A stretch of 64,000 nt of DNA from an uncultured delta proteobacterium. GTDB taxonomy: Bacteria > Desulfobacterota > Binatia > UBA9968. Under the pieces are notes generated by a model. It made no database searches. It saw only the letters and a list, made by a program, of their open reading frames with translations, and was not told where the DNA came from. Position 1 is the stretch's first letter. The number at the start of each line of letters is the position of its first letter. A program made the position numbers and the translations under genes. The DNA lies in contig CAVXEP010000012.1 of NCBI GenBank assembly GCA_963760795.1, positions 128,001 to 192,000 of the forward strand, given 5' to 3'. Shown here piece by piece: positions 5,512-27,536 of the stretch.

Positions 5512-6177
5512 TTAGTGAACGCGGATTTTCTTCGCCGCTTCGATGCCGAGAGAAAACTGATCGTCGCCGACTTTCAGCGTCATCATGCCAAGAGATGGGG
5601 CGACATCTATAATATGTACTTTGGCGCCTGGCACCAGTCCGTGATCCTCTAAATACCCCAACAGGCGAACATCCCGTTCGCCGCCCTCGGTAATATAGTC
5701 GAGATCCACTTGTTGGCCGTCCACGGCTTCGCTGAGCGGCACGGTTTTGGGCAGTTTACCGGAACCGGTTCCGGGAATCGGGTTGCCATGCGGGCAGGTC
5801 GTCGGGTTGCTCAACAGCTTTGCTAGACGTTCTTCAACCTCCTGCGAAATCGCGTGCTCCAAACGATGGGCCTCCTGATGCGCCTTGACCCAGTCCAATC
5901 CCAACAAGTCGGTTAGGAAACGCTCGGTCAGAAAGTGGCGGCGAACGATCCTCTCAGCGACTTTTCGTCCATCTTCGGTCAGATGAATCTCCTTGCGGCG
6001 ATTGATCGTGACGTAACCGTCACTAGCCAGACGACGCAACGTCGCGAACATGGTCGACGGCGTCACCCCGGTCTCGGCCGCGATGCGAGCGGCGATCACC
6101 GGTTGAGCCTCCTCGGCTAGCTGGTAAATCGCCTTCAAATAGTCCTCCAAGGCGTGGGTTACTTTATGAGCTTCCAT
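5512..6177 (-). CDS. DtxR/IdeR/MntR-family metal-dependent repressor with C-terminal FeoA/SH3 domain
   Basis: EDYLKAIY, RRHFLTERFL, EAHRLEHAIS, CPHGNPIP. Confidence 0.95.
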   Translation of the reverse strand: MEAHKVTHALEDYLKAIYQLAEEAQPVIAARIAAETGVTPSTMFATLRRLASDGYVTINRRKEIHLTEDGRKVAERIVRRHFLTERFLTDLLGLDWVKAHQEAHRLEHAISQEVEERLAKLLSNPTTCPHGNPIPGTGSGKLPKTVPLSEAVDGQQVDLDYITEGGERDVRLLGYLEDHGLVPGAKVHIIDVAPSLGMMTLKVGDDQFSLGIEAAKKIRVH

Positions 6178-6440
6178 ATATCAATTGACTACGGATCGCT
6201 TTTCTCACCTCGCTCCGGGCCCGTCGAATCGCACGGCCACGATGAGCACAGGTTTCTGCACAGATGTAGCGCATGCTATTGGAGGAATCGTTCAAGTGCA
6301 AGTTGATTACACGAGAACAGCCGAAACGGTCGCGATGTAACAGCGTCCGGAAATTCACTGCGGAACTCAGAGGTGGAATTTCCCCGGGCTGTTCTGGACC
6401 TCTCTAGCGGTTTCAGGTATTGATTCCTGGCAAAGCACCG

Positions 6441-10652: not shown

Positions 10653-10697
10653 GCCGGCGCAAACGGCAGGCCGAACCACGATTGGCGGATAGTAACT

Positions 10698-10730
10698 TTT
10701 TCAGGTCGCTTCCCCTTCCATATACGAACA
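10698..10730 (+). promoter_or_regulatory. Third copy of the TATACGAACA promoter/operator
   Basis: TTTTCA-N17-TATACGAACA directly before the FTR1 gene. Confidence 0.5.
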
Positions 10731-10732
10731 CT

Positions 10733-12711
10733 ATGGGTTCCTCCCCGGCTACGATTCCGCCACAATCGAAAGTTCAGATCGGCTCCTGTTCGCCATTGGA
10801 CTTGTTTTCCTAACCGTCACCGGCGCATTCGCTGCCGGCGATGAAGCCAAGCGTATTTTAGCGCTAATCGATTACATCGGCGGCGACTATCGCAACGCCG
10901 TGCAAGGCGGGAAAGTCGTCAGTGACGCCGAGTACACGGAGATGAGCGAGTTCTCGGCGCGCAGCTTGGAGCTGTTCAGCCAATTGAAATCCGCCGAAGG
11001 CGATAAAGCGGGCATCGAAAAAGATCTGCGAGCGCTGGCAAGCCACATACAGCAGAAAACCGGCGAGGATGCAGTGCCGCAGTTGGCCCAGCAGATCAAG
11101 GACCGCTTGATCAAAACCTATAACATCGTCACCTACCCCAAGGCTCTGCCGAACTACGAGGGCGCGAAACTGATCTACATGCAGAATTGCGCTCAGTGCC
11201 ATGGCGAGAGCGGCAGAGGCGACGGCCCCGGCCGCGAGTCGATGAATCCAAAAACACCGCCGCCGGCCAATTTTACCGACGCAGACTTCATGGCCGGACT
11301 CTCGCCTTTTAAAGTCTATAACACGACCACGTTCGGCATCGACAAAACGGCGATGGCTTCCTTCGCCGCGCTGCCGGACGAGCAACGCTGGCAAGTCGCC
11401 TTCTATGTTATGGCGCTACGTTTTCCCGCTGAAACAGCAGCTGCCGGAGAGTCCTGGCTGAAAGGCAAGTCGCTGCCGGCCACCCTCGCAGGCGTCGCCA
11501 CCTTGGCAACTTCTTCAGACAACGAGCTATCCGATAAAATCAAGACGAGTTTTCCCAACGCGCCGCACAACGACATTCTCGCCTACCTCAGGCGCGGGCT
11601 TCTAGAGAAAAAATCGAGCGATCCATTGTTGATCGCTCGCACCCTGCTCGGCGAAGCCGCTGAGATATACAGCAAAGGCGATAAGGAAAAAGCTTACCAG
11701 AAAGCCATCGAGGCCTACCTTGACGGCTTCGAGATGGCCGAGCCGGCGCTGTTCGCCAAGGATGCGGCCTTGGGAAGATCTCTCGAGGCCCAGTTCACGC
11801 AGTTTCGCAATTCGATCCGGCAGGGAGTTTCCGCCGAGGAGATTCAAAAACAACACGCCGAGATCGAAGCCAAGCTCGACCAGGCGGCACAGATGTTGGC
11901 CAGCAGCGATGATTTCTCCGGTTATTACGCATTCTTGAATTCGGCCCTGATCATTTTACGCGAAGGACTAGAGGCGGCGCTGATTCTCGCCGCGATCATC
12001 GCCATGCTGCGAGTGATGGGCGCGACAAAATCGATTCGTTACATCCATTTCGGCTGGATGCTGGCGGTGGCCGCCGGTTTCCTCACCTGGCTCGCCGCGC
12101 AGACCGTGCTGACTTTCAGCGGCCAGCACCGTGAAAGCATGGAAGGATTCATCTCGATCTTCGCCGCGGCGGCGCTGTTCTATGTCGGCTATTGGCTGCA
12201 CACCCGGACCGAGGCTAAACGGTGGCAGGCGTTTATTCAAGACAAAGTCCAAAACGTACTTTCGCGCAAAAGTATCTTCGGACTGGTCGGCATCTCTTTT
12301 TTCGCTGTGTATCGCGAGGCCTTCGAGGTCGTGCTCTTCTATCAGGCGCTCTGGTTACAGAATGAAAATAGCCACCAAGCCATCCTTGGCGGATTCGCCG
12401 CAGGCGTAGCCGCGCTGCTCGCGGCTACCTTTGCGATCTTCAAGCTCGGCCTGCGCATACCGCTAAAATACTTCTTCGGCGTCACCGGCACACTGCTCTA
12501 CATCATGGCCTTCATCTTCGCCGGCACCGGCATCAATCAATTGCAGGCGGCCGGCTGGGTTCCGGCAACACCGCTCGATTTTCCGCCGGCGGTGCCGCTG
12601 TTGGGCATCTATCCGACCATGGAAACCCTGGCAGCCCAGGGACTATTGGTCTGCATATTTATAGCTACCTCGCTATGGATGGCGCATGAACGAAAAAAGG
12701 CAGTGGCTTAA
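10733..12711 (+). CDS. Cytochrome c/FTR1-family iron permease (EfeU/PbrT-like); 5' end approximate
   Basis: In-frame ALIDYIGGDY upstream of ORF 10900, CAQCH heme motif, REGLE and REAFE motifs. Confidence 0.9.
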
Positions 12712-12900
12712 ATGCGTGTTCCAAGGCAAGGCGAACAGGAAACGGCGGAGACGGTGACTCAGGACGGCGATGCGCTTCGTTGCCATTGCGGCAGCTTGGT
12801 CGCCCGGCTGGTGCCGAATGGAGTGGAAATCAAATGCCGCCGCTGCAAACGGCGCGTTGTAATTCCGCTCGGTTTGGGCGCTTTTGAAATCTCAGAATAG
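12712..12900 (+). CDS. Com-like Cys4 metal-ribbon microprotein (62 aa)
   Basis: RCHCGSLVARL...VEIKCRRCKR matches the Com-family pattern; ATG abuts the FTR1 stop codon. Confidence 0.75.
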   Translation: MRVPRQGEQETAETVTQDGDALRCHCGSLVARLVPNGVEIKCRRCKRRVVIPLGLGAFEISE

Positions 12901-12954: not shown

Positions 12955-13037
12955 TTCAGTTACTTAAAGAGTAATATTTAGTATCGACTAATAATTTTAC
13001 TTAGAGTTGACAAATATTATTGATTTCGATATACGAA
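12955..13037 (+). promoter_or_regulatory. Four DtxR-like boxes at 23-bp spacing over a sigma70 promoter
   Basis: 14-mers at 12955, 12978 (TTAG-TATCGA-CTAA), 13001 and 13024; TTGACA(13007)-N17-TATACG(13030). Confidence 0.6.
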
Positions 13038-13044
13038 CATAATT

Positions 13045-13122
13045 AGCGGCCAGCGATCTAGAATCCAGAGCCCGGATTTTGCCGAAAAAATATCGGCAAA
13101 ATTACGGGCATTTTTATTGTTT
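13045..13122 (+). terminator. Leader element copy A: 29-nt repeat motif, hairpin and T-tract (attenuator-like)
   Basis: AGCGGCC AGCGATCT AGAATCC AGAGCCC overlaps stem GCCCG..TTTTGCCGA/TCGGCAAAA..CGGGC, followed by ATTTTTATTGTTT. Confidence 0.65.
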
Positions 13123-13138
13123 ACGGAGGTCAATCTAA

Positions 13139-13351
13139 ATGTACGGCATCAAATCACCCCAGGGCAGATGGTCGGTCTCGCTTTGCAACTGTAGTCAGGA
13201 CACCGCCCACTTTCACTACGGCAGCGTCGTCCTGCACATCGCCCGTGACGACCTGCGCGAGCTTGGTCTCGCCATGCAAAGCGTCGCCGAAGGTAGCGAC
13301 CTAACTGATACGGAAAATCACATCGAGTTAAAGAAAGGTCTGGTCCAATAG
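13139..13351 (+). CDS. Small CxC/HxH protein, first gene of the tonB operon
   Basis: GGAGG RBS at 13125; LCNCSQDTAHFHYG; stop 2 nt before exbB. Confidence 0.7.
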   Translation: MYGIKSPQGRWSVSLCNCSQDTAHFHYGSVVLHIARDDLRELGLAMQSVAEGSDLTDTENHIELKKGLVQ

Positions 13352-13353
13352 TC

Positions 13354-13963
13354 ATGTCGGCATTTATTGCAATCATCATCAAAGGCGGCATCGTCATGAT
13401 CCCGCTGCTCGCTTGCTCCTTGATCTCACTCGCGCTCACCATCGAACGGTTTGTGTTTTGGGCCAAACTGAAAACCAAAGATGTCCTGGATCAAATCTTG
13501 TCATTGGTCGAAAAGGGCGAATTCGAACAAGCTCTTAAAACTGGGCAAGACCTCCAGCCAGCCAATCGCGCGGGTTTTAGCGGCGGGTATCGCGCACCGC
13601 AATCCCGCGCCGGCGAAGGCAATGGAAGCTCTGGCGCAGGCCGAGATTCCCGTGCTCAAAAGCCGCCTCGGAATTCTCGACACCATCGTGACGCTTGCCC
13701 CTCTGCTCGGATTGCTCGGCACCGTCGTCGGCATGATCGGCTCCTTCGATGTCATGTCGGAAGCGGGCATGGGGCAACCCCACGCCATTACCGGCGGAGT
13801 CGCGGAAGCGCTCATCGCCACTGCCACCGGCTTGTTGATCGCGATCTTGACCCTGGTCTCCTACAACTACTTCACCGCCAAGGTCGAGCGCGAAATGGAC
13901 CGCATGGAGCACTTCAGCTCCTCGCTGGAATTGTTGCTGCATGAACATGCGGGGAAGCATTAA
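13354..13963 (+). CDS. exbB: ExbB/MotA/TolQ proton channel, one frameshift
   Basis: GGIVMIPLLACS...IERF then APLLGLLGTVVGMI and EALIATATGL. Confidence 0.9.
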
Positions 13964-14376
13964 TGCGCATTCAACGCCGCAGTATCAAGAAAGCGCGCAT
14001 CGAGATCATCCCGATGATCGACACGATCTTTTTTCTACTGGTATTTTTCATGATCTCGACCTTGTCGATGACCCAGTTCAAAGGCATGCCGGTCAATCTG
14101 CCCAAGGCGGCGTCCGGCCAGCAGGCGCCCGCCGAGAGCGCGGCGATCACGATTGATAAAGACGGCCGGTTGTTTCTCAACCAGCAAGCGATCGACAAAG
14201 CGGCTCTCGGTGAAGCTTTGAGCCAGCAACTTGCGAAGAATGCCGAGATGTTGGTCGTCATCAACGCCGACGACGGCGTTCAGCACGGCCAAGTGGTCGA
14301 AGTCATGGACATCGCCCGCGGCGCCAACGTGGCAAAGATGGCCATCGCGGTCAAACCGAAGGAGCAGAAAAAATGA
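13963..14376 (+). CDS. exbD: ExbD/TolR biopolymer transport protein
   Basis: IEIIPMIDTIFFLLVFFMI, VNLPKA, VINAD. Confidence 0.93.
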   Translation: MRIQRRSIKKARIEIIPMIDTIFFLLVFFMISTLSMTQFKGMPVNLPKAASGQQAPAESAAITIDKDGRLFLNQQAIDKAALGEALSQQLAKNAEMLVVINADDGVQHGQVVEVMDIARGANVAKMAIAVKPKEQKK

Positions 14377-15203
14377 ACGAGCGCTGGTTGGTATCTTCAT
14401 TCACTGCGTCGTCGTTGATTCATTTGGGAATAATTCCGTTGGCTGCGTTGGTGATGCACGCCAAACCGATTAAACCCGCCATGGTTCCCATTGAGCTGGT
14501 GGATGTGGCGCGCGTCGAGGAACCGAAGAAAGTCGAAGTCCCACCGCCTCCGCCTCCTCCAGCGCCCAAACCCAGGCTGCAAAATATCACCGCGCCGAAG
14601 CTTATATCCAAACCGGATTTCGAAACCAGCCCGCTGCCGCCAACCGGCAACACCAAGGAAGAGATCAAAGAGAAACCGGTCGAACAGCCGCTCGCCTCGC
14701 TGCCGGATAACTCCGGCGCCGCCAAGGCTGGATGGAATGTCGGCGCGCGCGCCGCGGAAGCCGAAGGCAGCGCCGCCGGCGCCGGCAATCTTTTCGGCAA
14801 GGGCGACGTGGGCGTGGTCGGCGGTAGCGGCGTGGCCGGCGGTGGCGGCGGCACAGGCGCGTCGGGATTGGGTCGAGGCGCCAAGGGCGACGGCACCGGC
14901 GGCGGCGCGGGCTCCGGCGAAGCATTATCGGGTCTCGCTCGCCCGCTCGGCGGTTACCAAGTCAAGCCGCGCTATCCCGAGTCCGCCAGAAGAGCGGGTG
15001 TTCAGGGAGTAACAACGTTGCGCGTGCGTGTTTTGGAGAATGGCCGGGTCGGCGAAGTGGTGGTCGAACAGTCAGCCGGCTTCCGGGATCTCGATTTCGC
15101 CGCGATGGACGCGGTCAAAAAATGGCTCTTCGAGCCGGCTCGCCGGGGCAAAGACGCGGTGTCGGTCTGGGTGATGTTACCGGTGAAGTTCGAACTGCAC
15201 TAG
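14373..15203 (+). CDS. tonB: Energy transducer TonB
   Basis: N-terminal TM with SxxxH, Pro- and Gly-rich linker, PRYPESARRAGVQG, WLFEPA. Confidence 0.92.
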   Translation: MNERWLVSSFTASSLIHLGIIPLAALVMHAKPIKPAMVPIELVDVARVEEPKKVEVPPPPPPPAPKPRLQNITAPKLISKPDFETSPLPPTGNTKEEIKEKPVEQPLASLPDNSGAAKAGWNVGARAAEAEGSAAGAGNLFGKGDVGVVGGSGVAGGGGGTGASGLGRGAKGDGTGGGAGSGEALSGLARPLGGYQVKPRYPESARRAGVQGVTTLRVRVLENGRVGEVVVEQSAGFRDLDFAAMDAVKKWLFEPARRGKDAVSVWVMLPVKFELH

Positions 15204-15211
15204 GAAAGACC

Positions 15212-15403
15212 ATGGGCAAAACGCTTGTGAATTTCGCTATCAAACAAACGGTCACACCGAGTCTGCCGGCCCCTTCCGGCCCAAAGCCGCGCATCGAAAG
15301 CAATCACTTGTTTCAAGGCAACAGCGAGATCGTCATCGTGCACCAAAAGGAGGAATACAACCTGCGCATCACCAGAAACGGCAAGCTAATTTTGACGAAA
15401 TAA
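15212..15403 (+). CDS. hemP: Hemin uptake regulator HemP/HmuP
   Basis: IESNHLFQGNSEIVIVHQKEEYNLRITRNGKLILTK, with the KLILTK family signature. Confidence 0.9.
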   Translation: MGKTLVNFAIKQTVTPSLPAPSGPKPRIESNHLFQGNSEIVIVHQKEEYNLRITRNGKLILTK

Positions 15404-15414
15404 TGTTTATGACG

Positions 15415-15488
15415 AAGCCAGCCATCCTCTCCTCCGGACGTGGAAAGCCAGCCAATCAAGCAACCCAAACACTATGGAGGATGAGATG
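15415..15488 (+). promoter_or_regulatory. Putative HemP-responsive leader: direct repeats plus anti-SD
   Basis: AAGCCAGCCA at 15415 and 15445; CATCCTCTCCTCC (15423-15435) is largely complementary to GGAGGATGAGATG (15476-15488). Confidence 0.65.
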
Positions 15489-17662
15489 AGTCGGCAACAA
15501 AAGCGTGCGATCGAAAGAAAGAAGGGCAAGACGGCGTTCCAAAAACTCTGTCTTGCCGCGGGCGAAGGAGTTGGCAAGGCGATGGCTTTCAGCTTTGCGT
15601 TGGCAAGCCACGCAGGCGCGGCGGAGCCGAAAAAAGAGGAACCGATCACCCTGCCGCCTGTGGTGGTGCAGGATCAAGGCAGCCCCTACACTGCCGGAAT
15701 CGTCCCTGTCGAGAATACCTGTACCACTGCAGGATATGCCACAGTCGATTACCGTGATACCGCAACGATTAATGCAGGAACGCGGAGCTGCTAGCTTCCA
15801 CGATGCGTTGCGCAGTGTACCCGGTATTAGTTTCCAAGCAGGCGAAGGGCGGCGCTCAGGGCAACAATTTGACGTTGCGAGGCTATAACGCGAGGAACGA
15901 CCTTTTCATTGACGGGGTTCGCGATCAGGGCTCGTATTTTCGCGATATATTCAATCTCGAATCGATTGAGGTTCTAAAAGGACCGTCCTCACCTATACTT
16001 CGGCCGTGGCTCGACCGGTGGCGCGATCAATCAGGTCAGCAAAGTTCCACAGCTTACGCCGAGCTACGGCGGCATGTTTGCTCTGGCGGCAACGGGGTTT
16101 ATTTGCGGGGCACGAGCGATGTCAACCACCCAATAACCCGGTCGCCCACGCGGCTTTCCGCGTCAACTTGATGGCCCACAAGGACGATATTGTCGAGTCG
16201 CGACATTTCAGAGCAGCAACGATTGGGATTTGCGCCGTCGATCTCGTTCGGTCTCGGCACCCCAACCCAGTTAACCTTGAGCTATCTTATTCAAGGCGAA
16301 GACAATATTCCGGATTATGGTTTGCCCTACGTGGAATGGCAACCCGTTCCGCACCGACCGGAACAGCTTCTATGGCTTTGACCAGTGAAGATTACGAAGA
16401 AGACAATGCTGAATCTCGGCACGTCGCGGCTGGATCATCGCTTCAACGATATTTTCAGCTTGCGGAATACCCTACGCTACAGTCATAACGACCGGGAGCA
16501 CGAAACCACAGCGCCACGCGTCAATGTCATCCCCACCCTGTTCACCAGGAATAGACCGGCGCGCGATATTACTGAGGCGCTTCTCAGCAACCAAACGGAT
16601 CTAACCGCCAAGTTCGACACGTGGGGCTTTAAGCATGCATTAGTCTCAGGGCTCGAGTTTTCCCGGGACTGGTTGGATCGAACCAATTGATGCTTTCGTG
16701 GGAGCGCCGCCGGCAAACGCTATCAATCCAAACCCATACGCCAGTACCGCGGGCATGTCACACTCGGCTATCGCAGCGCGCAGACGGCGCCGCCTTCGGA
16801 TTCGGCATCTTCGCCGCAGATCAAATCAAACTGAACGAGTATTTTGAACTCGTCGGCGGCGTCCGTTGGGATTATTTCGACAACGACTTCGAAGGATCAC
16901 GCATAATACCCTGACGCGATAAGCTCGTTCGGACGGGTCGACGGATAAAATGTGGAGTTATCGGGGCGGACTGATCTTTCACCCGACCCCGTCACAGAGC
17001 TACTATTTCTCCTATGCGACCTCGTTCAATCCCTCCGCCGAAGCCATCCCTCAGCCAGCCACCAACGGTACTCCTCCGGAAAAGAATAGAATCTTCGAAA
17101 TCGGCGGAAAAGTGGAATTCTTCAATGGAACCTTAAACCTGCAAGGCGCTGTATTTAGAATCGACAAAACCAATGCCCGTGTAACTGATCCATTAGACCC
17201 AACCGGGACGCTCGTGCTTGACGGTGAGCAACGTGTTCAGGGTGTGGAATTCGGCATCGCTGGCCGCATTCTCCCCAACTTGAATGTGTTCGCTGGATAC
17301 ACTTTTCTCGATTCGAAGTTTCGCAAATCCCCGACCCCAGCCGTCGAGGGCAATCCGATATTAAACGTGCCGAAGCACAGCGCGAACTGTGGGTAACCTA
17401 CGACTTTTTCGAAAAGTGGCAGATCGGCGGGGGGCCGACGTATGTCAGCAGCTCGATCTACAACAATGCCGCGAACGTCACCCGTGTCCCGGTTCATGTT
17501 CTCTGGGACGCGACGGTGGCGTATCAGCTAACCAAGAATTTCCAATTCCGGCTCAATGGTATCAATCTTACCAATGACCATTACTATTCGGCTCTCAGCG
17601 GAGGAAACGTGTTGCCTGGAAATGGGCGCACGTTCATCCTCAGCACGAGCTTCAAGTTCTAA
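15486..17662 (+). CDS. TonB-dependent siderophore receptor (Fiu/PiuA-like), many frameshifts
   Basis: TonB-box-like [44 protein letters not shown]-terminal SFKF*. Confidence 0.85.
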
Positions 17663-22612: not shown

Positions 22613-23091
22613 CTAGCTCTTCTTGTATATCTGTTGCGCGAGGTAATTTTGGTATCCGACTTCTTCAATCTCATGCAGCTGGGTTTCGATCCAGTCGACA
22701 TGCGCTTTCTTCATCAACGAGAATATGCTCCAAAAGCTCCCGGCTGGCGTTGTCACTCGCGTCGAAGCAGCTCTTGATGCCGCCTTTTAAAACTGCCAGT
22801 GCGCCCTCTTCCAATCCAAGATCATTTGCCAATTGCTGTTTCACCGATCGCTCCGACGCTGATTTTGTCATAAGCGGTGAGATTGGGAATCCCTTCGAGG
22901 AAAAGAATCCGTTCGATAATTTGATCGGCGTGCTTCATCTCTTCAATGGATTCTTTCCACGCCACCCCTGCCAGCACCTCGTAGCCCCAGTTTTTGCACA
23001 TCTTGGAGTGAATAAAATACTGATTGACGCCGGTAAGCTCTTTGCGCAGCACTTCGTTAAGAACCTTGATGACTTCAGGACTTCCTTTCAT
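22613..23091 (-). CDS. bfr: Bacterioferritin, two frameshifts
   Basis: MKGSPEVI..ELTGVNQYFIH..ESIEEMKHAD..ERILFLEGIPN; tail HVDWIETQL..GYQNYLAQQI. Confidence 0.9.
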
Positions 23092-23372: not shown

Positions 23373-23388
23373 CGGCACGCTAAGTGCT
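23373..23388 (+). promoter_or_regulatory. sigma54 promoter for the ferritin-like gene
   Basis: CGGCACGCTAAGTGCT (GG-N10-GC); predicted +1 near 23399. Confidence 0.55.
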
Positions 23389-23403
23389 TCTTCAGCTAAA
23401 CAA

Positions 23404-23536
23404 AGAGGCCAGCGGTCACGAACCCAGAGCCCAGCGTTTTGCCTTAGCGGCAAAACCCGGGCTCTCGGATTTGCTTACGATGAGATGCCAGCGCAAAAGA
23501 ATAATGATATGGTGTTTGTCCATCCGTAAACAAATC
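23404..23536 (+). promoter_or_regulatory. Leader element copy B plus a second long stem ending just before the RBS
   Basis: 24/29 identity to 13045-13073; stem AGAGCCC..TTTTGCC/GGCAAAA..GGGCTCT; then GATTTGCTTACGATG/CATCCGTAAACAAATC. Confidence 0.65.
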
Positions 23537-23554: not shown

Positions 23555-24055
23555 ATGGGCACTAAAGGAAGAGAAATTGTCGGCATGGACGTAGAACAAC
23601 TGTTGAAGACACTCAACATGGCTTTCGCCGACGAGTGGTTGGCTTATTATCAATACTGGCTCGGCGCCAAAGTCGTGAAGGGGCCGATGAAAGAAGCGGT
23701 GATCGCCGAACTTTTGCAACATGCGGCGGACGAGCTTCGTCATGCCGGCCTGATCGCGGGCAGGATTATTCAGCTCGGCGGCACGCCGGTGGCCGAGCCG
23801 AAAAAATGGTACGACGTGACCAGTTGCGGTTACGACGCGCCCGATGACCCGTTCGTCGAGACTATCCTGAACCAAAACATCAAGGGCGAGCGCTGCGCCA
23901 TCGACTTTTACAAGAAGCTGTTAGAGGCGACGCAGGGCAAAGATCCGGTCACTTACAATATCGTATTGCAGATTCTCCAGGACGAAGTGGCGCACGAGGA
24001 AGACCTCCAATCGCTCGCTGAGGACCTGGACTTCATGTTGAAGAAATCACAATAG
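23555..24055 (+). CDS. Ferritin-like (DPS-like) protein
   Basis: AGGAGG RBS; ADEWLAYYQYW, DELRHA, GERCAI, DEVAHE. Confidence 0.9.
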   Translation: MGTKGREIVGMDVEQLLKTLNMAFADEWLAYYQYWLGAKVVKGPMKEAVIAELLQHAADELRHAGLIAGRIIQLGGTPVAEPKKWYDVTSCGYDAPDDPFVETILNQNIKGERCAIDFYKKLLEATQGKDPVTYNIVLQILQDEVAHEEDLQSLAEDLDFMLKKSQ

Positions 24056-25012: not shown

Positions 25013-26548
25013 CTATTTCTTCTTGGCGTCGGTTTCGATGCGCGGAAACAAGACTTTCGGCGCGTTGATCCGATGTCCGGCCACGAAGCCCTCGCCCCAA
25101 GGTTTGGTCAAAGCAGCGGGCTCAAGCGCCAACAAGGCGCGCAACTCACCCACCGTGTCCGGCAAGAATGGCGCCAACAGCCGCGCCAGAGTACGCACCA
25201 CTTCGAGCAACTGATGCAGCACCGCACCGACGCGCGCTTGCTTGTCGGCATCCTTGATCATCGTGAACGGGGCCATCTGGACGATATAGCGGTTGACGTG
25301 GTCGAGAGCGGCCATGACCGACTCCAAGGCGCGATGGAACTGCAAGTCGTTCATGTAGCCATCGATGTCTTTCTCGGTTTGAGCGAACTTATCGCGCAGC
25401 TCGCGGTCTTCCACCGGCCAATCGGCGCCCAGCGGCTGGACGATACCGGCGAAATATTTTTGTTGCATGGCCAGCGCCCGGCTGACGAAGTTGCCGAGAT
25501 TGTTGGCGAGATCGGTATTATACCGGCTAACCAAACTCTCATGACGGAAGTCGGGATCCTGGCCGAAGACGCTTTCACGCAGCAAGAAATAGCGCAACGC
25601 ATCCATGCCGATCTCGGCTTTCACTTCCAGTGGTGCCACGGTATTGCCCAAGCTCTTCGACATTTTCTGGCCTTCGACGGTCCAAAAACCATGTACGTTC
25701 AGATGCTTGTACAGCGGCAACCCGGCCGCCATCAGCATGGTTGGCCAAAACACGCCGTGGGGTTTGACGATGTCCTTGCCGATAAAATGCTGCGCCGCCG
25801 GCCAGAATTTTTGAAAAGTTTCCTCGCCCTTGAACTTGAGCGCGCTCACATAGTTAAGCAAGGCGTCGAACCAGACGTAGGTAACGTAACGCTCGTCGAA
25901 GGGAATGCCGATCCCCCAACTGAGCCGGCTCTTGGGCCGGGAGATGCACAGGTCGCCGATCGGTTCGCGCAGCATGCCGAGCACTTCGTTGCGATAGCCT
26001 TCGGGGCGGATGAAATCCGGATGACTTTCGATATGCTCGCGCAGCCGGTCCTGATACTTTCCCATGCGGAAAAAATAATTTTCTTCCTCGATGAGCTTCA
26101 GTTCGATGAGATGGTCCGGACATTTGCCGTCGCGCAGCTCCTTTTCGGTGTAAAAGCGCTCGCAACCGACGCAATATAAGCCGCCGTACTTGCCGAAATA
26201 AATATCGCCGGCATCATAGACCCGCTGCAAGACCTCTTGCACAAAGCGCACATGATGCGCGTCGGTGGTACGAATGAAGTGGTCGTAGGTAATGCCGCAA
26301 TCGTCCCAGATACGGCGAAACGCCGCGCTGACGCGGTCGGTAAACTCTTTTTCCGGGAGCTTGGCCTCGGCCGCGACCTGGGCGATCTTGTCGCCATGCT
26401 CGTCGGTGCCGGTAAGATAAAACGTCTCGTCGCCTTTGGCCCGGTAGTAGCGCGCCAAAGTGTCCGTGATGACCATTGTGTACGTGCTGCCCAAGTGGGG
26501 TTCGGCATTCACGTAGAACAATGGCGTAGTGAGATAAACCGCACTCAT
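25013..26548 (-). CDS. metG: Methionyl-tRNA synthetase (short form)
   Basis: YVNAEPHLG, GTDEHG, YVWFDAL, KMSKS. Confidence 0.97.
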   Translation of the reverse strand: MSAVYLTTPLFYVNAEPHLGSTYTMVITDTLARYYRAKGDETFYLTGTDEHGDKIAQVAAEAKLPEKEFTDRVSAAFRRIWDDCGITYDHFIRTTDAHHVRFVQEVLQRVYDAGDIYFGKYGGLYCVGCERFYTEKELRDGKCPDHLIELKLIEEENYFFRMGKYQDRLREHIESHPDFIRPEGYRNEVLGMLREPIGDLCISRPKSRLSWGIGIPFDERYVTYVWFDALLNYVSALKFKGEETFQKFWPAAQHFIGKDIVKPHGVFWPTMLMAAGLPLYKHLNVHGFWTVEGQKMSKSLGNTVAPLEVKAEIGMDALRYFLLRESVFGQDPDFRHESLVSRYNTDLANNLGNFVSRALAMQQKYFAGIVQPLGADWPVEDRELRDKFAQTEKDIDGYMNDLQFHRALESVMAALDHVNRYIVQMAPFTMIKDADKQARVGAVLHQLLEVVRTLARLLAPFLPDTVGELRALLALEPAALTKPWGEGFVAGHRINAPKVLFPRIETDAKKK

Positions 26549-27536
26549 GACTGTCCCTTCACGACTCCAAACAAGTATTTCTCCAAAACCATGCGGCGAT
26601 TGAGATTGCGTTGGATCGCCGCCGCGGCCCGGCTGCTGGCGGACACAGCCGCGATTCGCTGCTCGCTCTGCGCCGGCGTAGCTTGCTGTTCGATTTGCCC
26701 GAGCATGTCTAAGTTGACCAGCTGGCTGCCATCGCCGGTAACGCCATAAACCAGCAGATCGCGATACCAGCTTTGTGCCCAGGAAAGAAACTTGAGCGCG
26801 TCGTCGCGGTTACCGGCCAACGCTTCGGCAGCCACGACGGCAGACTGATAATCGCCCGCCTTGAGCGCGCCGACCATGCCTGCCCAAACCCGCCGCTTCT
26901 CGACAAACGCTTCTTTGTCGAGACCCATGGCGGCGCCGATGCTGCCCATACTCATGGCGGCGACAAACTCAACATCGTCGCCGGTCATCCTCTGCTTCGT
27001 GCGCAAATACTGAGCGACCTCGCTACGCGCCAGCGGCGCAAAGGAAATCCGCAGACAACGCGAACGCACCGTCGGTAATAGCCCGCCGGCGCTCGCGGCG
27101 ATCAGAATAATCAGCGAGTCTTGCGGCGGTTCTTCGAGGGTCTTTAAGCAGCGCGTTCTGCGATGCCAGGTTCATCAACGTCGCCGGATCGACGATGACG
27201 ATTTTACGCTTACCCGTGAACGATCGATAATTGAGCTCGCGCTCGAACTCGCGCACCTGCTGGATCGAAATCTCCTTTTTGCCGGCCAGCGGCTCGATGA
27301 CGCGCACATCGGGATGATTGCCATCGGCGATTCTCGTACAATTGACACACTCGCCGCAAAAATCGCCGACGCCGGCGCCGCAATGCACCGCTTGCGCCAG
27401 GGCGGTTGCGAGCATGCGCTTGCCGATCCCCTCAGGCCCAACAAACAGATAGGCATGGTGCAACCGTCCGCTGGTCAAGGCCAGGCGCAGGGTCTCCAGT
27501 TGTCGACCGATGGCCGATGATTTCGTTAAAGCCCAT
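26545..27536 (-). CDS. holB: DNA polymerase III delta' subunit, frameshifted
   Basis: HAYLFVGPEGIGK, CGECVNC, NHPDV, QNALLK, RSRC; tmk-holB-metG-tatD synteny. Confidence 0.9.

Follow-up and report, generated by a model that had tools for sequence, protein, structure and literature searches.

Introduction

In the antitermination systems of BglG, SacY and LicT, with their RAT sequences, and in that of HutP, a leader terminator is read through when an RNA-binding protein holds a sequence overlapping the 5' arm of the terminator, and proteins of the BglG/SacY/LicT type stabilise an alternative RNA hairpin. Small RNAs under Fur or DtxR control, such as RyhB and PrrF, are located beside iron genes. 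The system that comes closest to the locus of this study is com-mom of phage Mu, where, as stated in the accessible part of the published account, the Com protein binds to a short hairpin that lies immediately before the mom start, the GA of its loop being crucial, and this binding is thought to melt an adjacent hairpin that hides the start signals (PMC6483171). In Pseudomonas, short com-like genes of the PF10122 type have been described immediately before cargo genes (llpA bacteriocins, levansucrase); according to the accessible portion of that source, what they do in regulation has yet to be explored (PMC6240691). For these chromosomal genes the same portion describes no RNA partner and no tested mechanism (PMC6240691), and Com has so far been a one-phage curiosity.

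In this study, the leader of an iron-uptake operon in a stretch of 64,000 nucleotides (hereafter the window) was investigated together with its relatives in other genomes. We observed that the hairpin of this leader is the 3' half of a conserved RNA motif of about 78 nt and not a lone terminator. This motif, considered with a small Com-like zinc-ribbon gene, suggests a protein-operated gate on downstream expression. The wide spread of the motif, its second copy in the window and the non-iron genes that it serves outside the lineage had been missed by the initial annotation.

The iron-uptake locus and its leader

The features of the locus are collected in Table 1. The Com-like gene starts at the base after the stop codon of the EfeU/FTR1-cytochrome c gene, and an ABC transporter is encoded between the latter and the gene of the DtxR/MntR family. 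Downstream of the leader, MotA_ExbB, ExbD, TonB_C, hemP and the pieces of the receptor were found, in agreement with the label of an exbBD-tonB-hemP-receptor operon that had been given from the sequence at the outset. The first gene after the hairpin, the 70-aa ORF, has no match in Pfam or NCBIfam; its Atlas cluster consists of 216 'hypothetical' members, commonest in Binatota, and it follows the motif in relatives with the same promoter arrangement. Changes of frame split or truncate exbB (13354-13963), the receptor gene (15474-17396), a bacterioferritin gene (22822-23091) and holB (26545-27478), and contigs of relatives differ by 1 nt at 13533-13537, within exbB. These four genes carry either indel errors of the assembly or are pseudogenes.

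Table 1. Features of the window discussed in the text, with their positions, strands and the evidence for each.
Feature	Position	Strand	Evidence or detail
DtxR/MntR-family regulator gene	5512-6177	-	NF053665 E 3.2e-37, NF047407 E 2e-34, both below curated cut-offs
EfeU/FTR1-cytochrome c fusion	10900-12711	+	ORF just upstream of Com-like gene
Com-like Cys4 zinc-ribbon gene, 62 aa	12712-12900	+	ORF; single copy found in genome
Predicted promoter (TTGACA 13007-13012, 17-nt spacer, TATACG 13030-13035)	13007-13035	+	conservation in relatives
Conserved RNA motif, copy 1	13043-13121	+	covariance-model match 66 bits, E 3e-13; folds; pair counts
P2 hairpin, motif copy 1	13070-13109	+	40 nt; sequence reading and fold
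70-aa ORF, CNC..HFH, first gene after hairpin	13139-13351	+	GGAGG 13125-13129
exbB	13354-13944 and 13481-13963, split between frames	+	MotA_ExbB domain in 13481-13963 only
exbD	13963-14376	+	Pfam / NCBIfam
tonB	14373-15203	+	TonB_C, Pfam / NCBIfam
hemP	within 15122-15403	+	PF10636, E 7.5e-17
TonB-dependent receptor, several ORF pieces	15474-17396	+	Plug and beta-barrel matches on separate ORFs
Sigma-54-like -24/-12 element upstream of copy 2	23373-23388	+	CGGCACGCTAAGTGCT; two mismatches to TGGCAC-N5-TTGCW
Conserved RNA motif, copy 2	23402-23474	+	degenerate pattern; covariance model 67.6 bits
Dps-like ferritin gene	23555-24055	+	NCBIfam DPS E 7.8e-23

The predicted promoter of the operon was not called by the consensus scan of the window; its TTGACA is invariant and its TATAC nearly so in 11 of the 11 aligned relatives. 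From its position, transcription would start at about 13042, just 5' of the motif. This TTGACA-17-TATACG element, upstream of the motif, is the only conserved promoter-like element of the operon, and there is no room for a second promoter, since the U-tract ends at 13122 and the GGAGG of the first ribosome-binding site already begins at 13125 (the ATG being at 13139). It follows that the operon should be expressible only by read-through. A short sequence of the -10-like region, ATATACGAAC at 13029-13038, recurs at 10721-10730 upstream of the EfeU/FTR1-cytochrome c gene, and may be a promoter or regulator element shared by the two sites.

Derepression by DtxR had also been proposed as a key to this operon. 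A gene of the DtxR/MntR family is present about 7 kb upstream of the leader, and an inverted repeat, CTAAT..CTTAG at 12988-13004, abuts the -35 and is conserved in relatives. A recognisable operator was not found, and the DtxR key is unsupported: TTAG-N6-CTAA, which we assume to be the operator consensus, occurs once in the window, as it does in 26 of 100 shuffles, which also reach one match. A repeat like that of the leader was not found in the intergenic regions 6178-6420 and 10653-10900. As a separate observation, the TTAG-N6-CTAA palindrome and the CTAAT..CTTAG repeat occupy 12978-13004 together, directly upstream of the -35, and are kept in relatives.

The hairpin and its tail at copy 1

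In window letters, the 5' side of P2 is made up of GCCCG (13070-13074), an unpaired G (13075) and ATTTTGCCGA (13076-13085), followed by a loop of 7 nt, AAAAATA (13086-13092), and by a 3' side consisting of TCGGCAAAAT (13093-13102), TA and CGGGC (13105-13109). The U-tract ATTTTTATTGTTT at 13110-13122 lies directly 3' of the stem, with 7 T within the first nine bases. As RNA, the hairpin by itself folds with -23.1 kcal/mol, the 80-nt motif with -26.5 kcal/mol (z -3.65) and the 106-nt leader stretch with -33 kcal/mol (z -4.15), the last two values being equalled by 0 of 200 shuffles each. Two features of an intrinsic terminator, a stable G+C-containing stem-loop and a U-tract directly 3' of it, are present at copy 1. 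The initial annotation had read a stem from GCCCG at 13070 to CGGGC at 13109 and a T-run between a promoter-like site and the first ribosome-binding site at 13125, and the sequence and the folds bear this out. The hairpin is not among the nine sites of a simple terminator scan, and we infer that it was passed over on account of the 1x2 internal loop, which parts the perfect inner stem from the T-run.

Other kinds of attenuator were compared with the same stretch. The GGAGG is placed 16 nt 3' of the stem, which leaves the Shine-Dalgarno sequence outside P2, so the sequestering feature of the Com/TIS type is not found at copy 1. With regard to leader-peptide attenuators, there is no ATG or GTG within 13043-13122, the single TTG of this stretch sits in the variable inner stem and is not conserved, and no conserved leader ORF was found. 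On inspection of the leader and the alignment, neither an upstream complement to GAGCCC nor a pseudoknot partner or alternative pairing for it was seen. An antiterminator made of RNA only is therefore not available, and a protein holding GAGCCC open would be the simplest switch.

A further reading takes P2 as an ordinary intrinsic terminator of the upstream EfeU/FTR1-com transcript, with no regulatory role. Such a terminator would end the operon of the Com-like gene wherever that gene adjoins the motif, and from the stop at 12900 to the hairpin there is no further terminator. We nevertheless consider this reading extremely improbable, as it leaves unexplained the 27-nt block that is kept across phyla 5' of the hairpin, the promoter found between gene and hairpin in 11 relatives, and also the copies far from any such gene (copy 2 of the window) and the versions that have no U-tract.

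No sequencing run contained as much as half of the sampled words. Contigs were found in four runs (two RNA, two guessed to be RNA), and all of these are from relatives with 85-99% likeness and cannot show ends, strand or level. In one contig of an RNA library, 13075 is joined to 13372, which we read as a relative that has no 70-aa ORF, and a contig of a guessed-RNA run extends from a terminator 3' arm into the 70-aa ORF; both are too weak to be taken as evidence of read-through.

Architecture, conservation and covariation of the motif

The 5' block of the motif, AGCGGCCAG at 13045-13053 in copy 1, is near-invariant and single-stranded, with the consensus GGCCAG.G. It is followed by P1, a mini-hairpin of 3 bp, which in copy 1 is formed by GAU/AUC around the loop CUAGA (13055-13065) and in which the loop takes the form C-N-N-G-A across the motif. 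After P1 comes CAGAGCCC, which opens hairpin P2; in copy 1, CCAGAG at 13065-13070 leads into P2, and the last bases of the string CCAGAGCCC after P1 are the 5' foot of P2. The GAGCCC of this foot is part of the near-invariant block. That the block is nearly invariant across phyla is in part a product of the method, since the cross-phylum loci were found with the exact pattern.

When relatives were searched at the DNA level, a stretch of about 45 nt immediately 5' of the hairpin proved to be 83-94% identical even where the flanks fail to align. Within the genus, a degenerate pattern of the block gave 30 matches in 20 of the 31 genomes, and the reversed control gave none. The match in G001, with two mismatches, inside a coding region and with no hairpin, was rejected as false, leaving 29 true instances, and all 29 share a hairpin that begins with GCCC and ends in GGG(C/T/G). 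In P2, the inner stem varies in sequence with compensation and always folds (-4.9 to -28.8 kcal/mol in the genus instances), and the median of P2 over the 68 instances that form it is -22.7 kcal/mol. P1 was revealed by RNAalifold on the genus set, where its middle pair is GC in 11, AU in 10 and GU in 8 instances and is never broken.

The same behaviour was seen in the 60 distinct sequences, where P1 is paired in 60/60 and its middle pair is GC in 49, AU in 6 and GU in 5, with none broken. Over the whole motif structure of these sequences, 97.3% of the cells are paired, as compared to 94.1 +/- 0.3 in shuffled alignments, of which 0 of 500 reach the observed value. The G-U pairs present in P1 and at the foot of P2 (30/60) fit an RNA of this strand and not DNA. 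Alignment A1 and model R1 include the locus of G004, whose motif region is present letter for letter in the public record L082, and the order and genus tallies of the DNA search of relatives, the motif and the gene include the unpublished genomes G004, G082 and G085.

The Com-like gene and its coupling to the motif

In an alignment of 30 sequences of the Com-like family, C24, C26, C42 and C45 are invariant and give the pattern C-x-C ... C-x-x-C. A profile of this family aligned with phage Mu Com in hhalign at 93.7% (E 1.9e-7, 31 columns spanning both knuckles), and the gene is, as judged from these profiles, a remote homologue of phage Mu Com. None of the 30 members reaches the gathering threshold of Pfam PF10122, and four of them match it at E up to 1, with 0.0038 as the best; the protein of the window itself has no PF10122 match, and the names of its Atlas neighbours, Com family or FluMu com, are automatic ones. 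A profile search of solved structures gave nothing significant, the best being ribosomal uS14 at E 0.045.

The tally over the 123 genomes of the order comprises 51 with motif and gene, 3 with the motif only, 4 with the gene only and 65 with neither, and these counts overstate the support, the genomes being related and not independent, so that they are a description rather than a test. The gene was detected in 55 of the 123. Motif-only genomes are G007, G009 and G118, two of these being weak matches, and gene-only genomes are G045, G080, G114 and G117, again with two weak matches. In G007, exbB is present and the Com-like gene is absent, and exbB is placed directly after the receptor gene, with no leader. 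Among the 32 genomes of the family outside the genus that have both, the motif is located 24-139 nt 3' of the gene match and on the same strand in 27.

Across phyla, the gene was sought by a profile search of six-frame ORFs at 65 loci, seeded with the 62-aa protein and with three duplicate rows dropped, and a same-strand Com-like gene was found within 2.5 kb in 51 of the 66 distinct instances. Five further genomes with no same-strand gene in the 2.5-kb flank all carry it elsewhere (5/5), four strongly and one at E 4.4e-4. The ratio of gene copies to motif copies is 1:2 in the window's genome and 2:4 in G013. The Com-like gene and the motif are tied to each other across genomes and phyla. This tie, and the position of GAGCCC in the near-invariant block, favour that part of the initial annotation which had a Com-like protein acting as a gate at GAGCCC; the DtxR key joined to it there has no such backing. 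It was also observed that in L106, from G013 (2680-2847), a Com-like gene lies 123 nt downstream of a motif copy, and that in L093 (2537-2872) a second Com-like ORF follows the motif; each arrangement could form an auto-activation loop.

The coupling of gene and motif is silent on the direction of the effect, and a repressor has therefore to be weighed, in which the Com-like protein would stabilise P1/P2 and promote termination or occlusion in the manner of TRAP or PyrR. Gene and motif are often co-transcribed, with the gene coming just before the motif, an arrangement that would also suit negative feedback on the distal genes. We assign little probability to this repressor, considering that the only studied homologue activates by melting a neighbouring hairpin, as given in the accessible part of PMC6483171. 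Moreover, with the median stability stated above P2 is already very stable and a stabiliser would add little, and the conserved block extends over the 5' foot of P2, where a competitor of pairing would sit.

Expression platforms and the genes served

Five or more T in the nine bases after P2 were counted in 48 of the 69 distinct instances and fewer in 20, and one instance has no P2; within the genus, 23 of the 29 instances have at least six T of nine. In the GC-rich L086, L111 and L140, the Shine-Dalgarno sequence is inside the 3' arm of P2, with the start codon within 4 nt, and in L086 and L140 the motif is inside the end of the Com-like gene's own reading frame, as in Mu. Taking the 63 distinct instances with one found, a Shine-Dalgarno sequence and start codon follow 9-53 nt after the hairpin in 53, and are inside the 3' arm in 7 more. 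One conserved block combined with two expression platforms has the look of a regulatory binding site. It was further noticed that in L086 (198-285) and L140 (2440-2536) the GUCGC within the P1 region could also pair with a GCGAC that directly follows the downstream AUG. Such pairing, seen in these two related sequences only, would extend the inhibitory structure over the start codon.

The spacing of gene, motif and start codon also bears on a free-standing small RNA of about 78 nt, which would be transcribed from the promoter at 13007-13035, ended by P2 and work in trans by means of its conserved 5' block, possibly in partnership with the Com-like protein, like the iron-regulated small RNAs next to uptake genes. 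A small RNA would have just this anatomy of promoter, about 78 nt and good terminator, the predicted start is just 5' of the block at both copies of the window, and the short RNA would be the main product anyway if termination is efficient. However, in 37 of the 66 distinct cross-phylum instances the Com-like gene overlaps the motif or has its end no more than 60 nt before it, the usual gap being 10-60 nt, which is not a promoter-like spacing. The Shine-Dalgarno sequences and start codons close after the hairpin or inside its 3' arm, as counted above, likewise do not suit a free-standing RNA, nor does the motif inside the end of a reading frame in L086 and L140. Such an RNA would also leave the operon with no other conserved promoter, and a 25-nt block so constant between phyla is unusual for a base-pairing seed. 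A trans-acting small RNA is on these grounds unlikely.

The genes downstream of the motif in the window's lineage encode ExbB, porin-like barrels, DUF6662, cupredoxin, TonB-dependent receptor, FTR1, multicopper oxidase, di-haem peroxidase and ferritin. In Chloroflexota, the genes run from TetR through the Com-like gene and the motif to DUF6125, acyl-CoA dehydrogenase and SDR, and at a Nitrospira-labelled locus an HD-domain protein gene is found downstream of the motif. A single metabolic theme was not found among the downstream genes across phyla. At the Chloroflexota-labelled L081, L087, L091, L095, L109 and L127, the cassette is inserted between TetR and the DUF6125/acyl-CoA dehydrogenase/SDR genes, and no iron genes are nearby.

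These gene contents have to be considered for a riboswitch as well, one that would sense a small molecule or metal ion, with the Com-like gene merely a frequent neighbour. Nucleotides that are near-invariant across phyla and alternative platforms (terminator or Shine-Dalgarno sequestering) are what such an element would display, and the downstream genes in the lineage are iron-related (ExbB, TonB-dependent receptor, FTR1, cupredoxin, multicopper oxidase, ferritin). Nevertheless, the cassette serves non-iron genes elsewhere and is therefore portable, which weighs against a metal riboswitch, and the downstream genes share no common theme across phyla. Rfam 15 gave no family for the window region at E up to 10 and none for nine diverse motif loci at E up to 1, with nothing near the gathering score. 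The structure consists, besides P2, of only a 3-bp stem, with neither a pseudoknot partner nor an alternative pairing of GAGCCC found, and a ligand sensor would not be expected to have one protein gene as a near-obligate companion in its genome. A riboswitch is accordingly very unlikely. Two weak Rfam matches in L109 were rejected, being on the opposite strand and far below the gathering scores.

The second copy, ahead of the Dps-like ferritin gene

Copy 2 of the motif consists of P1 at 23414-23424 and P2 at 23429-23462, the latter being extended to 23426-23465 by AGAG/CUCU, and folds with -33.6 kcal/mol (z -3.62). Its tail, CTCTCGGATTTGC, is not U-rich, with 4 T of 9. The Dps-like ferritin gene, whose homologue in L084 matches Pfam Ferritin at E 3.3e-24, starts 90 nt further on. 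The predicted start is just 5' of the motif, as at copy 1, and belongs to an element that we named after the sigma-54 consensus, which we take to be TGGCAC-N5-TTGCW. At two mismatches the window contains 20 matches to this pattern where 32 are expected, which is not significant, and hence what counts for the sigma-54-like element is its conservation only: five relatives of copy 2 display GGCAC-N5/6-GCT at the same place. Copy 2 and these five relatives have no U-tract and lie 80-95 nt from a Shine-Dalgarno sequence, and folding the alignment of the copy-2 leader did not convincingly connect the motif with the Shine-Dalgarno sequence. As far as the sequences indicate, the motif must act otherwise here, or not at all.

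Distribution of the motif

With the covariance model, the motif was detected in 54 of the 123 genomes of the order, all of them in one family. In that family, 53 of 89 genomes carry it, the window's genome being left out, as compared to 0 of 33 in the two other families. Among 150 other genomes drawn from the phylum, none had the motif at E up to 1e-4 with stricter filters, and the distribution of the motif is therefore patchy.

An exact-pattern scan, with one genome per species, gave 65 public loci, where about one match is expected by chance (about 40 bits over about 1.2e12 positions, with equal base frequencies). The record titles of these loci include Binatia, 'delta proteobacterium' MAGs, Myxococcota, Nitrospira, Bdellovibrionota, Omnitrophota and Thermodesulfobacteriota, as well as Chloroflexota (Anaerolineae, Dehalococcoidia, Thermoflexus), and some titles are doubtful, as two loci labelled Chloroflexota and Verrucomicrobiia are identical to loci of the same genus as the window. 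For the Chloroflexota-type loci, contigs reach 1.5 Mb in length and the protein comes in variants of its own. The pattern had no exact match among 2.9 million viral contigs. No description of the motif RNA, nor of Com-like genes in iron loci, was found in searches of the literature. The leader RNA would belong to a previously undescribed and widely spread class.

Proposed mode of action and significance

We propose that 13043-13121 is a cis-acting leader RNA in which binding of the Com-like protein opens P2 and allows read-through, and we hold this with evenly balanced confidence. In the window and in most copies, P2 and its U-tract would serve as an intrinsic terminator placed before the first ribosome-binding site. 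The 62-aa Cys4 zinc-ribbon protein would bind P1 plus CCAGAGCCC on the nascent RNA, and the bound protein would keep the foot of P2 from pairing, with the result that RNA polymerase would read through into the 70aa-exbB-exbD-tonB-hemP-receptor operon. In a few GC-rich relatives, whose Shine-Dalgarno sequence forms the 3' arm of P2, this binding would release translation, which is the effect that Com has at mom. Activation as the presumed direction of the effect is taken over from Mu by analogy.

A wider reading, to which we lean only tentatively and at rather less than even chances, would be that a Com-type protein and an RNA of about 75 nt make up a portable gate that crosses phyla, works mostly by antitermination and is wired into different regulons. 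These would be iron uptake and storage in the Binatia-like lineage and acyl-CoA metabolism in Chloroflexota. As a bolder extension, the Cys4 site might make the gate answer to metal supply.

What this study adds is a defined candidate RNA partner with a covariance model, about 70 distinct instances from genomes labelled as at least five phyla, and also a conserved block that is combined with expression platforms of two kinds. For the Com family, antitermination at an intrinsic terminator would be a mode not known so far. If the protein binds as proposed, the motif and the gene would constitute a new family of protein-operated leader switches, and a post-transcriptional layer would be added to the control of iron uptake in an uncultured soil lineage.

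Comparison with known systems

With RyhB and PrrF, the motif at copy 1 has in common a short transcript with its own promoter and terminator, both of which are predicted here, and a position inside an iron-uptake cluster. It differs from them in having a ribosome-binding site at once 3', in following the stop of a gene with no promoter at most loci, and in having no Rfam match. The logic proposed for the motif is the same as in the antitermination by BglG, SacY, LicT and HutP; however, the protein folds are unrelated, and no alternative hairpin is evident here besides the 3-bp P1.

The com-like genes of Pseudomonas resemble the gene of this study, in a comparison by description only, as small genes immediately before unrelated cargo, whereas the taxa and the cargo differ, and no RNA element or terminator is described for them in the accessible portion of PMC6240691.

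The nearest likeness is to com-mom of phage Mu. In both, a Cys4 zinc-ribbon protein of about 60 aa, with detectable homology between the two, is encoded immediately before the gene under control, and the RNA site coincides with the 3' end of the protein gene or follows it closely. A small hairpin is followed by a larger one that blocks expression, the Mu side of this likeness being taken from the accessible part of PMC6483171, and the GC-rich relatives hide the Shine-Dalgarno sequence and start codon as the inhibition structure of Mu does. In the Mu sequence the layout of two hairpins is present, but its fold is not strong by itself (z -1.76), and the structural analogy consequently rests on what that part of PMC6483171 reports. 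There are also clear differences from Mu. The setting here is chromosomal, the pattern was not found in the 2.9 million viral contigs, and the RNA sequence is unlike the Mu site and the SELEX consensus as these are given in the accessible part of PMC6483171. The first zinc knuckle is CxC here and CxxC in Mu. The blocking hairpin here is mostly an intrinsic terminator, by which the controlled step would be transcription, and one gene here serves two to four copies of the RNA per genome, some of them at a distance.
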